A DNA stretch of 30,740 bases from Candidatus Micrarchaeia archaeon (GTDB lineage: Archaea; Micrarchaeota; Micrarchaeia; Micrarchaeales; CABMGC01), in assembly GCA_049976305.1 (NCBI GenBank), contig JBMFIM010000010.1, forward strand, positions 1 to 30,740, written 5' to 3'. The first letter of the stretch is position 1, and every line of letters begins with the position of its first letter. This document shows, piece by piece, positions 18,001 to 24,000 of this stretch. The position numbers were made by a program.

Positions 18001-21000
18001 AGGCAGGAAACAAACAAAAGCCTGCTTGAGGAGCTTAGGAAGATTGCCAGAGTTGCAAAGCCTGACTTCGTAGTGTTCGTTGGCGAAGCCATAACGGGCA
18101 ACGCCCTTCTTCAGCAAATAAAGGAGTTCAATGAAGTGGTAAAGATTGACGGCATCATACTAACCAAGCTGGATTGCGATGCAAAAGGAGGCGGCTCGAT
18201 TTCGGTGCTGAGCGAGGCAGGAATTCCTATTCTTTTCTTCGGCATAGGGGAGAAGCACACTGACCTAATGCCATATAGCAAGGAGTTTGTTGTAGACTCT
18301 GTGCTCGGCTCTTGACTAAAGCCTTGTTGTGGACTCGCCATTGCCAATGGCACTTGCGAATATATGCACAAGCCTCAGAAGGCTTGTTACGTAGCCTACA
18401 AGGCCATGCACGTCTTCCTTTGTCGGGCCTGTTGATAGGAAGTAGAAGCCTGAATCGCTGAACTTCTTAGCTTTTGTGTATATGCGCATTATTGCCTCTT
18501 TCTTTTCCTCTGCTCCTTTGGGCTTGGCAGCGTCTATCGCATTTAGAAGCTCTTGCACGTCAGGTTTCTTCCTAGTTACAGCTATGCATTCTATTCCCAA
18601 AGCCTTCTTTACTTCAAACAAGTCGATATAGTTAAGCCCGCCAAGCATCATGCTTTGAATCGCTACGAGCTTTATCTGCTTGCCAAACCTTGAAGAGCTG
18701 AGCCTGCTTATCAGCCTTTTTGTTGCGTCGTTGCCGTCGTGCTGTATAGTAAAGGAGATTGCGCCTTCTACCATGCCAAGCTTGCCAACTGCACCAATAA
18801 CGAGAACATGCTTGTCTTTTGGCTTAAAGGAAGCGTCATCCAGGGCGAGTATCCTTATTCCGCTCTTCATGCTTATTTCTCCTTGGCTACAAGGCCTTGA
18901 AGCTCTTTGAGCTCCTTGCTAAGTTCCTCAATTGCCTTCTTGACAGCCTGCTTGGCATTCTTGTCCTTTACTACTAGCCTTGGCTTCCCTACTTGCGGAT
19001 GGTCTAGCTCAACGCTGGCAAACTCAACGCCCATCTCAAAGAGCTTTGCCTTTATAAGTTCTGCAACGCTCCTGTCTATTCCATCAAACTCAATGGCAAA
19101 TGTTTTCCCTTCATCCTGCGTTATTTTTACTTCCATTTAAACTCCTCGTTATATTTCATTATTTTTCATTATTAATTGAAATGCTGAATATTAAATAACT
19201 ATTTGTGCCGAAATTTCAGCAAAAGCTTTCAAGATTCGAATTGAATTCGCTAAAGTATATAAATGTTTTTTATGCTAAAGATAAAGTTAACAAGGTGTAG
19301 TGATGGTTAGCATAAATGAGGTAAACGCCCAGCAGCTTGTCAAAGCGGTTGCAAAGAAGCTCCAGGAGCAGGCAATGCCAAAGCCGGCATATGTGGGGCT
19401 TGTCAAAAGCGGTGCAGGGAAAGAGCGAGTGCCTTTGCAAGACGACTTCTGGTATGTGCGATCTGCTGCAATTCTAAGGCAGCTTTACTTAAGGGGCCCT
19501 GTAGGCATTTCAAGGCTTAGGACCTATTTCGGCAACAGGAGAAGGCACTTGAGGATCTTCAAGCACCACCACTACAAGGCTGGCGGAAGCCTTATTACTG
19601 ATTCGCTGAATGCGCTTGAGAAGCTTGGGTATGTGGTTAAAACAAAGAAGGGCAGAGCCATAACGCCAAAGGGCAGGTCCCTGCTTGACAAAACCGCAAA
19701 TGAGCTTGTATCTGGCTGATCAAAATGGCAAATGCTGAAGAAGGCGCAGACGAGAACGAGAGGCTGCAGAAGATTCTCGCAAAGAGGTACAGGGAGCTGC
19801 AAATAGAGGAGCAGAAGAAGGCCGTTGCAAGGCAGCTGCTTGAGCCAGCAGCGTATGAGCGGCTTATGAACATAAGGGTTGCCAACTACGAGCTCTACAA
19901 GCAGCTTCTGGACTTGCTTGTCGCAATGGCTCAGAACAACAAGCTCGGCAGGAAGATAAGCGAGGAGGAATTTAAGCAGCTACTGGTTAGGCTAACAAGC
20001 AAGCCCGAGACCACTATTCATATTCAACACAAGTAGGTGCTATTATGAGCAAAAAGTCTTTGAAAAAGAAGCTTATGCTGGGTAAGAGGCTAAAGCAAAA
20101 CAGAAGGATTCCAGTGCTTGCATTGCTGAGGACGCATAGGCGCATAGCGTTCAACAAGTTCCAGCGAGACTGGCGACACAGAAAGCTGAGATTGCACGTT
20201 GACTAGCAGGTGGTTGCTTGCAGTCTATGGTAGTCAATTTGGCTAGAAAGCTTAGGGTGCTGCACAAAGGAAACAGGAGAAAGAGGGCTAGCGAATACCT
20301 CAGGCAAGAGCTGGCAAGGTTTGCAAACCTCGACAAGCGCAGCATAAGGATATCTGGCGAAGTAAACAAGCTCTTGCTTAGGGGCAAGCTTTCAGACCTT
20401 AGGAAGCTTGAGATAAGCATAGAGCAGAAAGAAGGGAAGAATTTTGTAATGCTGAAAAAGCAGCAGCCTCCTGCTCCACAAGCTCAGCAGCAGGCAAAAA
20501 CTCAGCAGGAGAATAAGGGCAAGGCAGAAGTCAAGGAAGGCGCAGAGGCGCAGTCAGGCTCGAAGAACGCCAAAGAAGCAGGCAAGGAAAAGAAACATCA
20601 GGCAGGGAACAAAGTCAATGCTGATGCTGCAGGCAGCGCCGGCGCCAAGCCCAACGCCAATGCTAAGCCTGAGAATGCTGGCAAAGCCAGAGCCAGCGCA
20701 AAGCTGGCAGGCCAAGGCGAAAAGCAGCCTGGTGGCAAGGAGGCAAGCGGCGTTGAAAGCAAGGTTTAATTAACTTTCTATATAATTAACTCTCTATATA
20801 AGTCTGTTATAAAACATAGTGGGATTATGGCAAAGTATGTCTTAATTTCGGATACTTCGCTAACGGCACCTTTTAGAAATTTCCCTCTTTTGCAGTTCCT
20901 GCCCAGTGCTCCAAATTCTGTGCCGCCTGCGATTTATTACTTTCTTAAGGGCAAGCCTTTCCCTGCCCTTCCAAACGGCGAAGCAAAATACGCCCCTTAC

Positions 21001-24000
21001 GCTGTGAGAAAGCTAGAAGCCGCGTTGCTAAAGAGGTTCAAGAGGGAAGACGTTGTAGTGGCGCACCAGGACCATCTTGAGAGGTTCATAACCGACGATA
21101 CTGAGGTTATAGGCGTGTCGACGATGGACCCCTTGGGCCTTGGTCCACTGACAATGTCATACAATGTGCTTCTTGGCCTGAAGGGCAAGCCTTGGGTGCA
21201 AGTAGAGTGGGAAACGCTGATAGAGCGCATAAACAGGGCGAGGAAGGGGAAGAAGGCGAAGCTGCTTGTTGGCGGCCCGGGTGTTTGGGATTTTACCGTA
21301 AGGCCCGAAGAGCTAGAGAATGAGGGCATAGATTACGCTTTCCAAGGAGAAGCAGACGACATTGCTCCGGATCTGTTTGAGCAAGTCGCAAGCGGCAACT
21401 TCGATTCCAACGAGTTCTTCAACGGCTACCTATTCATAGACGACAATTTCAGAAGGACTTTCATTCCGCACAGCAAGTTCCTGGTAAGGAAGCAAATCTA
21501 CAGGACAGCGCCGCCGATAGAGGAGATACCCGAAATTGTAAGGCCCTCTATAATGGGCCTCACCGAAGTCATGCGGGGATGCGGCATAGGGTGCGACTTT
21601 TGTGAGGTCACTCTGAGGCCTTTAAGATATTATCCTGTTGAAAAGATAAGGAAGGAGATAGAGGTAAACGTTGCAGGAGGCATATCAAATGCATGGCTCC
21701 ACAGCGATGAGATATTTGGCTACAAGCACCTCAACGCAAGGTTTGAGCCTAACGAAGACGCGCTTGTAGAGCTTTTCCAGACTGTGATGAGCATACCTGG
21801 CGTTACAAGAACCAATCCGACCCATGCAAGGATCTCAATACCAGCAGCATATCCCGAGCTTATAGAAAAGCTTTCAAAGATAATAAAAGCAGGGCCCGAC
21901 AATTGGATAGGCGTTCAGGTTGGCGTGGAAACAGGAAGCGATAGGCTTGCAATGAGGCACATGCCAAACAAAACCCTGCCTCTAAAGATAGGCCCAGACG
22001 GCACGTGGAAGGAGATAGTATGGCAAGGCACTAGGAACTTCAACAAATACTGGTGGAGGCCTGCATTTACTGTGCAAGTTGGCCAGGCAGAGGAAACAGA
22101 CGAGGACAACTGGGAAACTGTGGCTTTGATAAACCAGCTCAGCAACTCCTATGTTGACGGAAGGCCTTTTGAATTTACAGTAACGCCTATGCAGAACGTG
22201 CCAATGGGGCTCATAAAGAGCAGGGGCTTCACAAACTTGCAGCTTACCCAATCGCAGCTCGCCGTTTACTACGCCAGCTACAGGCACTTGGCAAAGATGG
22301 CGCTGAGGGACGCTAAGACAGAAAGCAAGAGGAACAACCCTATAGCAAGGCTCGGCGTGTTCAGCGTAATAACCTTTGGAGGGCTTCTGGTACTCAAGCT
22401 GATAGAGCGCTTTGCAAAGAAAAGCCATGTTGACATAGACAAGGCCAAGCGCTACGGGCTCTCTTCTGAAACGCAGAAAATAACAGAATACGCTGAGCTC
22501 AAGCAGCTCATATAACATTTGTCTTTCTTCCTTTTCTCTTTCTGTAGATTAGTATTAGTATAATGCTAATTTTTTTAGTAATGTTTAAATATCTGAAGAA
22601 CATAAATTAAAACCATGCAGATCACAAAGAAGGAAAGGGAGTGCCTCGTCGCTGTGAAAGAGCTGAGCGCCGAATTTCCGGTCAGGCTGGTAGACCTTGC
22701 GAAAAGGCTTGTAGTAAAGCCTCCAACGGCATTAGGGCTTGTGAGGCGCCTTAAGGAGAAAGGGCTAGTAGTCGAAAACAGAGGAAGCGTCTTGCTTACA
22801 GAAAAGGGCGTGCAGGCATACAGAAACATTATGCTGGCGCACAGAACCTTGGAATATCTGCTTTCGAAGGCAGGCATATCTAAGGAGTGTGCGTGCAAAG
22901 AAGCAAGCAAGATAGATTACCTTGTTGAGCCCTCATATGCAAGGAGGCTTTGGGCTTATCTGGGCAAGCCTGCAAACTGCCCGCACGGCAAGCCCATAAT
23001 AGTGAGGGCGTAGCATGAACCTGCTGTTTGTTGCAATAAATCTTTGGAATCCGCAGCATGTGACTTTTTGGCTAGCCCTGCTGCTCTCTTTCCTTCTGGG
23101 CCTTGTCCATGGAGCCACGCCAGATGAGCACACTTGGCCGATAACATTTTCCTATGCTGTGGGCAGCTACAGCACAAGAAAGGGCATGAAAGCTGGGCTC
23201 ATCTTCTCAAGCGGTTTCACGCTTCAGCGTGCATTCCTGTCTGAGCTTGCATACTTTGCCTTAGTGGCGATTTTTACCACATCAGTTGCTTTCGGAATAA
23301 CATATGTGGCAGTAGGAATTGCCATGGCAGCTGCAGGCTACTACCTTTCAAAACGCAGCAAGTACTTGCATTGGCATTACTTTGAGAAAATCCTGGGCCA
23401 GTGGCTTGGAGTACATGAGAAAGGCAGCAGGCAGCAACAACAGGAGTTCGAACACAAGCTTAACCCAATAACTTCCACAGACGCCAAGCCAGAGCTTCGC
23501 GAGGTGCCGCTTAGGCTTGCATTCATTCATGGCCTTATTGCCGGATTCGGCTTTGGTGCCTTTGCTCTAATACTAGTGACCGTCATGGTGCCTGCAATGC
23601 CAAATGCATGGCTTGCCTGGCTTCCTGGTGCGCTCTTCGGCTTGGGCACGATGGTAATGCAGATAATCTTCGGTGCGTTCTTCGGCACATTACTGACAAA
23701 GACAAAGAAGCTTACTCAAGAAGGCGTGGCGTTTGTCTCCAAATACATCAGCAGAAGCGTACTTTTCTACGGTGGCATAGCGTTCGTTGTTGCTGGGTTG
23801 CTTGTTCTTGCATATCCAAACATACTCAACTTTAGCATACAAACGGGCATAAAGATCCACAACCTAGACAGCCTTGACATTGGCTTCTTCCTAGTAATCT
23901 TTGTTGTGGTAGTTATAGGAATAGCAGGCTATGTTCGCGGCATAAAGCTTGCTGAGAAGCTGGGTTATGTCGCCAAGCCGCCCCAATTCAAAGAAGTAAA

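Follow-up and report, generated by a model that had tools for sequence, protein, structure and literature searches.

The window analysed here, a stretch of 30,740 nucleotides, carries on its plus strand the two separated parts of a ribosomal operon. The head opens with eS19 (19303..19719; PF01090), our linkage control for assembly gaps, and continues with a PDCD5-like dsDNA-binding protein (19725..20036; PF01984), eL39 (20045..20206; PF00832) and a divergent eL31 (20218..20769), whose C-terminal tail is of low complexity and which is the last gene of the truncated operon. On the minus strand, endonuclease dU and RpoL (18316..19136) diverge from eS19, as in most of the family loci read. The tail of the ancestral operon consists of prefoldin alpha (16757..17167, plus strand; PF02996), which lies downstream of aIF6 in relatives and stands here behind TFB and a 152-aa ORF, and of FtsY (17173..18315, plus strand; PF00448 and PF02881). 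Within 20227-22515 of the plus strand, eL31 is followed by a 57-bp AT-rich spacer (20770..20826), where relatives carry aIF6, and then by the ORF of a 562-aa radical-SAM protein (20827..22515). The region is covered by short contigs in one DNA run, possibly the source sample, and one contig of that run bridges the spacer.

The assignment of eL31 (PF01198) is based on profile evidence and on its position after eL39, the window protein alone being below all cut-offs: it gives no Pfam match at E<=0.01 and reaches NCBIfam L31e (NF002258) at E 3.3e-6, under the cut-off, while a profile of 22 slot-mates picks up solved eL31 chains, the best at 6.6e-19. Its start is probably the TTG at 20218, 4 nt after GGTGG, and a related contig opens with MQSM. 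The Pfam eL31 model was dropped as a locus marker, the protein being too divergent in the family (2 of 101 above cut-off), and eS19 was used instead.

The ancestral order is eS19-PDCD5-eL39-eL31-aIF6-prefoldin-FtsY, and in the genus this operon is broken at aIF6, so that the head now stops at eL31, before the radical-SAM gene. The initial annotation had described this break, and it recurs: the same junction is found in all five genus genomes that hold eS19 (G000, G010, G037, G053 and G075) and, in a metagenome collection scanned with eS19 as query, in five of six contigs of the genus lineage, the sixth ending at eL31. The tail with prefoldin and FtsY lies behind TFB in four genus genomes and is rearranged further in G010. 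The eL20 gene that had been placed between aIF6 and prefoldin is not there, aIF6 abutting prefoldin in the family loci of G001, G017, G002 and G011; a small ORF behind aIF6 in distant metagenome loci, considered as eL20, was rejected as it encodes a tRNA-binding domain. In five family loci aIF6 starts -4 to +18 nt after eL31; across five genus genomes the gap from eL31 to the radical-SAM gene measures 42-95 bp and is AT-rich, and several genus genomes carry TAAC-N5-GTTA or a similar motif in it. The spacer at 20770-20826 probably contains a promoter of the radical-SAM gene's own.

Beyond the locus, aIF6 (PF01912) is found in none of the six genus genomes, against 87 of 95 other genomes of the family, and it is present in 162 of 165 genomes from other families of the phylum; as the six genomes represent one evolutionary event, the small Fisher P values of such comparisons overstate the case. 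The genus-wide absence claimed by the initial annotation is now better supported than before, because the eight aIF6-negative family genomes outside the genus all lack the linked eS19 too and can be read as assembly gaps. Among eS19-positive genomes, aIF6 is present in 85/85 outside the genus and in 0/5 within it. The eS19-negative genomes G014, G016, G020 and G079, together with the genus genome G065, are read as gaps, since PDCD5 is missing from all five and RpoL from four. A 30-sequence family HMM, which scores the aIF6 of G018 at 2e-107 as positive control, was run with all filters off and found no aIF6 in the six frames of G000 (best E 0.5) or in those of G037, where the 30 contigs together gave a best E of 0.81. 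To look for a remnant or a strongly diverged form, every G000 protein of 120-330 aa without a G018 match (105 in total) was compared with aIF6 by HH-alignment; the best reached 4.9% probability, with a positive control at 100%. For the relationships we used a midpoint-rooted FastTree phylogeny of ten ribosomal proteins from 21 genomes. The outgroups g18 and g4 retain the eL31-aIF6 order, and the sister-lineage genome G020 is uninformative, as its whole aIF6 locus is missing: it yielded no match for aIF6, eS19, PDCD5, RpoL or Nmd3, and the 20 kb that were read on either side of and including its Dph6 contain no SecD.

All six genus genomes are 75-94% complete, in about 30-80 contigs each, none of them closed, and about 10% of the G018 orthologues present in one of G000 and G037 are missing from the other (48/453 for G000, 46/451 for G037). 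An aIF6 gene that had moved into a stretch failing assembly or binning in all six must hence be weighed, the more so as the operon was rearranged rather than cleanly deleted, as misses need not be independent and as the metagenome scan used eS19, not aIF6. However, the chance of independent misses in the genus, computed from the completeness values, is about 2e-6, aIF6 is among the best-recovered genes in the phylum (193/201), both ancestral flanks (the downstream side of eL31 and the upstream side of prefoldin) are assembled without it in all five genus genomes that hold the locus, and Nmd3 and Dph6 would need the same accident. We regard this artefact as very improbable, and the loss of aIF6 in the genus as very likely real.

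The gene now following eL31 had been labelled B12/radical-SAM, and the second half of the label is sound: the translation contains the motif GCGIGCDFC (CxxxCxxC), and PF04055 scores 37.2 bits against a cut-off of 29.5. The B12 half is weak, with PF02310 at 18.3 bits against 32.1 and TIGR04013 at 37.5 against 251, so the protein is at most possibly B12-dependent. That it occupies the slot of aIF6 is correct, but a takeover of the role of aIF6 does not follow, as 13 other family genomes carry full-length orthologues (62-67% identity) at different loci, and aIF6 is retained in 12 of the 13. Compensation by this enzyme, for example by modifying the joining face at uL14 or in the 23S rRNA, would fit its position behind eL31 in 5/5 genomes and five metagenome contigs, its 87-99% conservation within the genus (eS19, 71-97%) and the presence of another radical-SAM gene near the old Nmd3 slot. 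Yet besides the coexistence with aIF6 at varied loci, relatives occur in Thermoplasmata (58-62%) and Nitrososphaerota (Atlas), the AT-rich spacer separates the gene from eL31, and no family modifying rRNA or ribosomal proteins matched above cut-off, which leaves compensation with hardly any credence. Because it coexists with aIF6 elsewhere in the family, the radical-SAM gene is probably a bystander, an older gene relocated to the slot. Thermoplasmata were considered as its horizontal source and set aside, the unrooted tree giving no direction.

The loss extends to other genes, and two of them are additions to what the initial annotation had noticed. Nmd3 is above cut-off in 0/6 genus genomes versus 82/95 other family genomes, and Dph6 in 0/6 versus 77/95. 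In 27 of 30 family loci Nmd3 directly follows SecD; in G018 it is flanked by SecD and by a radical-SAM gene on the opposite strand, and in the two of six genus genomes where the slot was read, G000 and G037, both of these flanks lie on one contig with Nmd3 gone. The family HMM for Nmd3 found nothing there either (best E 0.11 and 0.16), and an Nmd3-like HH match at 63% was rejected as a thiolase-linked ChsH2 zinc-ribbon/OB protein. Such a pattern raises the question whether aIF6, Nmd3 and Dph6 were really lost, only independently, by a general erosion of the genome and not as a shared module. The three sit at separate loci in the family; Dph6 is gone while Dph2 and Dph5 stay, both being carried by three congeners of G037, which itself is without them; and many non-translation genes are missing as well, 290 of 908 G018 genes being unmatched in both genus genomes examined (G000 and G037), thymidylate kinase and pyrophosphatase included. 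On the other hand, among the 254 of these 290 that were scanned with Pfam, the clearly ribosome-linked ones are aIF6, Nmd3 and Dph6, with no ribosomal protein found; eL24, SBDS, aEF2, aRF1, aIF5A, aIF5B and Pelota-like genes are retained in the genus; and Nmd3 and eIF6 are in contact on the eukaryotic pre-60S (PMC6579518). We consider independent erosion unlikely, and the losses of aIF6 and Nmd3 may be functionally linked, although in view of Dph6 and the wider losses general erosion could account for their coincidence.

In agreement with the initial annotation, SBDS is kept at full length in 6/6 genus genomes, and aEF2, read in G000 and G037, has an intact HEDPVHRG loop. SBDS can no longer be taken as the releaser of aIF6, since in Sulfolobus the effect of aSBDS on aIF6 release in vitro is inhibitory and not promoting (PMC8024482). 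As aSBDS also binds idle 70S (PMC13324472), its retention is no paradox. The same work locates aSBDS together with HibA on the hibernating 70S of archaea, which indicates a job for SBDS independent of aIF6; the genus resembles this system in having a CBS+HPF protein and SBDS, and differs in that the Pyrococcus factors coexist with aIF6-bound 50S. The genus also encodes aIF1 and aIF1A. The proposition that it has neither a subunit-splitting nor an anti-association factor is thus right as to ABCE1 and aIF6, but too strong for anti-association in general, given aIF1, aIF1A and the CBS+HPF HibA. For uL14, the docking protein of aIF6, the genus/rest branch ratio is 0.203, with ten other ribosomal proteins at 0.126-0.218, which gives no clear sign of relaxed evolution, and none was seen for SBDS. 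The uL14 C-terminus is conserved, with Lys at position -3 in 6/6 genus genomes but also in 4 of 26 others, three of those aIF6-positive.

A conserved uL14 C-terminus is what one would expect had aIF6 been replaced on the 50S by a non-homologous or unrecognisably diverged protein. Room for such a protein exists among the 94 G000 genes common to G037 and without a G018 match, of which 31 were scanned and 14 gave no Pfam family. A need for one might be argued from Haloferax, in which aIF6 could not be deleted and is held essential, its depletion mattering in one of six conditions (PMC3828320). Against replacement, the 105 candidates show no profile likeness to aIF6, and the one checked genus-specific protein of aIF6 length (222 aa) looks Ig-like and was rejected. 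Neither of two bacterial-type factors appeared: RsfS is above cut-off in 0/5 genomes (0/4 of the genus) and HflX in 0/5 (0/3 of the genus), a weak RsfS match in G000 and G075 being rejected as aIF1/SUI1. Replacement is accordingly a quite improbable explanation in our judgement.

The missing ABCE1 has another history. The initial annotation had counted it with the genus, where it is indeed missing, but it is not a genus trait, being found in 0/92 genomes of the order versus 82/109 genomes of other orders. The full-length model NF009945, which scores 853.6 bits in a control genome from another order, is above cut-off in none of 14 genomes of the order (all six of the genus and eight others, six of the 14 being single-contig), and tblastn with four outgroup queries returned generic ABC matches only. 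Its absence dates back to the order's ancestor.

Taken together, we lean towards a stepwise loss of the late-50S lock in which this genus of the Micrarchaeaceae deleted aIF6 and Nmd3, with no replacement found. In the picture we infer, a single removable lock made up of aIF6 and Nmd3 sits on the maturing 50S at the face where the subunits join, and its keys would have other jobs, aEF2 in translocation and SBDS in protecting the idle 70S beside HibA. Because aEF2 and SBDS are needed beyond the lock, it could be dropped as a module with the keys kept. Maturation of the 50S would then pass through no checkpoint dedicated to joining, as is the case in bacteria, whose analogous factor RsfS binds uL14 and can be knocked out. 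By analogy, aIF1/aIF1A might act from the 30S side, together with aRF1/Pelota or aEF2, to open a vacant 70S, or the particle might be reused as 70S; for such opening and reuse there is precedent in eukaryotes and bacteria.

Of the archaeal late-50S set of aIF6/Tif6, SBDS/Sdo1, Nmd3 and aEF2, in which aIF6 and Nmd3 prevent the premature joining of immature large subunits, Tif6 and Sdo1 have been described as consistently present in archaea and Nmd3 as ubiquitous there (PMC8481954); relatives in the family have all four, whereas the genus keeps SBDS and aEF2 and is without aIF6 and Nmd3. A literature search on aIF6, Nmd3 and ABCE1 in Micrarchaeota, DPANN and archaea, with most subscription papers and supplements outside its scope, found no report of this loss. 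A comparable case is that of the diphthamide genes, which are lost in Korarchaeota, Geoarchaea, most Asgard archaea and parabasalids (PMC6143161), and where too a supposedly universal archaeal/eukaryotic translation gene is missing from a lineage; however, the whole pathway is lost there, while the genus misses Dph6, keeps Dph2/Dph5 and mainly loses 50S gate factors. Ribosome silencing by bacterial RsfA/RsfS (PMC3400551) likewise involves a dispensable large-subunit anti-association factor, but the genus genomes tested yielded neither RsfS nor HflX and so no bacterial-type replacement of these two kinds.

IF6 is common to archaea and eukaryotes, and it may be essential for assembly, as a checkpoint or in recycling; a defect in its release underlies Shwachman-Diamond syndrome (PMC9976893). 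The loss of aIF6 and Nmd3 with SBDS kept supports one removable lock and another job for archaeal SBDS. The order-wide absence of ABCE1 raises the separate question of how these cells split their ribosomes, and co-cultures of Micrarchaeales are listed in PMC6349945. More tentatively, as a possibility to which we give rather less than even weight, the ribosome cycle without aIF6, Nmd3, ABCE1 and HflX may run by an undescribed route, either with a new order-level splitting or gate factor or by initiation on intact 70S. If true, the genus would be a natural experiment in which the IF6/Nmd3 checkpoint and ABCE1 splitting appear as add-ons to the ribosome cycle and not as requirements.

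The aIF6 profile PF01912 matches none of the six genomes of genus g1 of the Micrarchaeaceae (G000, whose contig C10 is the window, and G010, G037, G053, G065 and G075; 75-94% complete, none closed), against 87 of the 95 other family genomes, and the genus-wide absence claimed by the initial annotation is thereby upheld. As a caveat, that annotation had mentioned three other family genomes without a hit. Linkage to eS19, which belongs to the same ancestral operon (eS19-PDCD5-eL39-eL31-aIF6-prefoldin-FtsY), serves as the control for judging whether an absence is real: all eight aIF6-negative family genomes outside the genus lack eS19 too (G020, of the sister lineage, has only a stop-ridden sub-threshold match), and among five eS19-negative genomes tested further PDCD5 is missing in all five and RpoL in four. 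Where eS19 is present, aIF6 is found in 85 of 85 non-genus genomes vs 0 of 5 genus genomes, G065 falling outside this set because its whole locus is missing, a contrast which makes an assembly artefact very improbable. In the phylum sample aIF6 occurs in 193 of 201 genomes; it is missing from three members of the genus, from G020 and G014, and from three genomes with aIF6-positive congeners. The family and phylum totals count the unpublished G035 and G125, and G035 sequences also entered the aIF6 and Nmd3 profiles; no claim depends on these two genomes alone.

More sensitive searches agree. With filters off, a family-specific aIF6 HMM finds no match in G000 (best E 0.5) or across the whole of G037 (best E 0.81), and tblastn with 30 family aIF6 proteins yields matches dispersed over unrelated places, the best at E 0.007. 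It is doubtful that an unknown replacement stands in for aIF6, since neither RsfS nor HflX has a match in the genomes tested and HH-alignment to aIF6 reaches at most 4.9% among the 105 G000 proteins of 120-330 aa without a G018 match (G018 is a single-contig outgroup). Counted against a real loss are the lack of a closed genus genome, the roughly 10% of shared orthologues missing from each of G000 (723 kb, 34 contigs, 93.7% complete) and G037, and the fact that six congeners represent one evolutionary event; we nevertheless regard the loss as real with high confidence. In a ten-protein tree g1 adjoins G020, the next lineages out being g18 and g4, both with aIF6, and as G020 is without the whole locus, the loss may predate the genus.

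By gene reading and Pfam, the window carries TFB, a 152-aa ORF, prefoldin alpha and FtsY in this order on the plus strand, then endonuclease dU and RpoL on the minus strand, and then eS19, PDCD5, eL39, eL31 (20218-20769), the radical-SAM gene (20827-22515), a DtxR-type regulator and a membrane protein on the plus strand, with no aIF6 behind eL31. Its eL31 is too divergent for Pfam; it aligns with the relatives' gene situated between eL39 and aIF6, 14 of 22 such slot-mates match PF01198 at E<=1, and a profile of the slot-mates matches solved eL31 chains. Divergence of eL31 is extreme throughout the family, where the gene passes the Pfam cut-off in 2 of 101 genomes and frequently bears a long Lys/Ala/Gln-rich tail, and annotation will overlook it. 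On the distant metagenome contigs L097, L098, L100, L102 and L103, eS19-PDCD5 has no recognised eL39, eL31 or aIF6 behind it. The contig end (27071-30726) holds a defence-like patch of an AAA+DUF4143 ATPase, a Schlafen/AlbA_2 protein and an AbiEii-type nucleotidyltransferase.

The radical-SAM gene lies behind eL31, as initially annotated, in 5 of 5 genus genomes carrying the locus and in five of six genus-lineage metagenome contigs, the sixth stopping at eL31. The idea that it took the aIF6 slot holds for this junction but not as a one-for-one swap. Most of the family loci that were read have eL31, aIF6, prefoldin and FtsY side by side, at times with an insert, and in some (G026, G040, G033, G021) prefoldin and FtsY are no longer behind aIF6; in four genus genomes prefoldin-FtsY follows TFB and a small ORF, and in G010 it is inverted. 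Given this separate placement and the eL31-radical-SAM junction, the locus was rearranged and aIF6 lost at the breakpoint. The radical-SAM protein matches PF04055 and carries a CxxxCxxC motif, and the score of its B12 domain is below cut-off; Thermoplasmata relatives share 58-62% identity. Elsewhere in the family, 13 genomes have full-length orthologues (62-67%) behind unrelated genes; 12 of these genomes also encode aIF6, and this coexistence makes it scarcely credible that the enzyme compensates for aIF6. We interpret the gene as a bystander with independent expression, probably from its own promoter: an AT-rich gap of 42-95 bp separates it from eL31 in the genus, while eL31 and aIF6, where both are present, are coupled (-4 to +18 nt). 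A TAAC-N3-5-GTTA inverted repeat, which may be an operator, lies 5' of the gene in several genus genomes and G057 (window 20770-20826, degenerate in G000; L041, L042, L043, L088; L179).

A tblastn comparison of G018 with G000 and G037 left 290 of 908 G018 genes without a match in either; 254 were scanned with Pfam, and 36 short, long or hydrophobic ones were judged by eye only. Besides aIF6, Nmd3 and Dph6 were conspicuous, and both were then examined family-wide. Nmd3 passes cut-off in 0 of 6 genus genomes vs 82 of 95 others, and a search of G020 gave no match. It stands immediately behind SecD in 27 of 30 family loci, the G018 order being SecD, Nmd3, a HAD gene and, on the opposite strand, a radical-SAM gene; in G000 (C15:1275-5626) and G037 (L335:3181-7863) the two outer genes share a single contig, with other genes between them and no Nmd3, and a radical-SAM gene of 355-379 aa is situated there in both. 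Dph6 has matches in none of the six genus genomes vs 77 of 95 others. The diphthamide loop of aEF2 is intact. Dph2 and Dph5, missing in G037, are encoded in G000, G010 and G053, which, with Dph6 absent, suggests an aEF2 with unamidated diphthine. The other genes confined to G018 in this comparison are of metabolic, mobile or unknown nature, which makes independent erosion a live rival for the losses, though we consider it rather unlikely. Thymidylate kinases, a soluble pyrophosphatase, an RNHCP-domain protein and DUF357 of G018 (L289:14700-16065, L283:19306-19818, L296:2308-2709, L294:4205-4432) have no match in G000 or G037; conversely, a cluster present in both (G000:C5:30637-35598) and not in G018 resembles an AMP-phosphorylase, RuBisCO and ribose-bisphosphate isomerase pathway, to judge by its sequence.

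The reported lack of ABCE1 is correct for the genus but not specific to it. None of 101 family genomes has its Fe-S domain over the cut-off; across the order the tally is 0 of 92, vs 82 of 109 in other orders. The full-length model, which would need 469 bits, falls far short with at best 96 bits in the six genus genomes and eight others of the order, six of these eight being single contigs (G018, G033, G115, G180, G186, G260), and a positive control from another order scores 853.6 bits. ABCE1 is absent from the order genomes searched, a finding in its own right, wider than the genus.

G000 retains aIF1, aIF1A, aIF5A, aRF1, a Pelota-like aRF1 paralogue and eL24, as well as GTPases that, judged by motif, probably resemble aIF2-gamma, aIF5B and aEF1A. 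Aligned N-termini precede the first ATG/GTG/TTG in 5 of 355 conserved genes in G000 (C9:19359, C4:19055, C13:16120, C1:23927, C1:50566) and 4 of 347 in G037 vs 1 of 342 in G018, a small difference that would fit non-AUG starts. An HPF domain lies within a reading frame of 380-440 aa in all six genus genomes, five over cut-off; in G037 it is fused to CBS domains, matching the HibA architecture described in PMC13324472. G000 and G037 also share a stand-alone CBS pair (G000:C2:6656-7045, L340:6403-6765) without a G018 tblastn match; modules of this kind have been put forward as hibernation factors (PMC13324472).

SBDS is full length, with no relaxation, in 6 of 6 genus genomes. Its retention was correctly noted, but its role as releaser of aIF6 fails in Sulfolobus, where aEF2 suffices to release aIF6 and aSBDS counteracts this step (PMC8024482). 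The Pyrococcus aSBDS is located on idle 70S (PMC13324472), and the retention of SBDS therefore does not depend on aIF6. The binding partner of aIF6, uL14 (PMC2615626), whose last eight residues are required in the human protein (PMC9976893), keeps these residues family-like in the genus and evolves within the rate range of other ribosomal proteins; because it is under other constraints, this is neutral on the loss.

Thus aIF6, Nmd3 and Dph6 are absent from the genus, ABCE1 from the order genomes searched, and the slots are rearranged. Vacant subunits can be kept apart by small-subunit initiation factors, and by this precedent such factors could cover recycling in the genus. Eukaryotic Nmd3 contacts eIF6 and spans the tRNA corridor (PMC6579518). 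Our favoured reading, which we judge somewhat probable, is that the losses are real, that aIF6 and Nmd3 would have formed a single lock on the 50S joining face which the genus discarded, and that aEF2 and SBDS would be retained for other jobs. Birikmen et al. (PMC8481954) describe Nmd3 as ubiquitous in archaea and Tif6 and Sdo1 as consistently present; unlike their archaeal set, the genus has neither aIF6 nor Nmd3, and their phylogenetic profiles may bear on novelty. A search of an open-access library gave no paper describing that Micrarchaeota have lost aIF6, Nmd3 or ABCE1, and passages of PMC6514570, PMC10732040 and PMC6349945 are silent on it. Near-universal translation genes, such as those for diphthamide, are known to be lost in single lineages (PMC6143161), and the loss of aIF6 and Nmd3 would be a further case of this lineage-specific kind.
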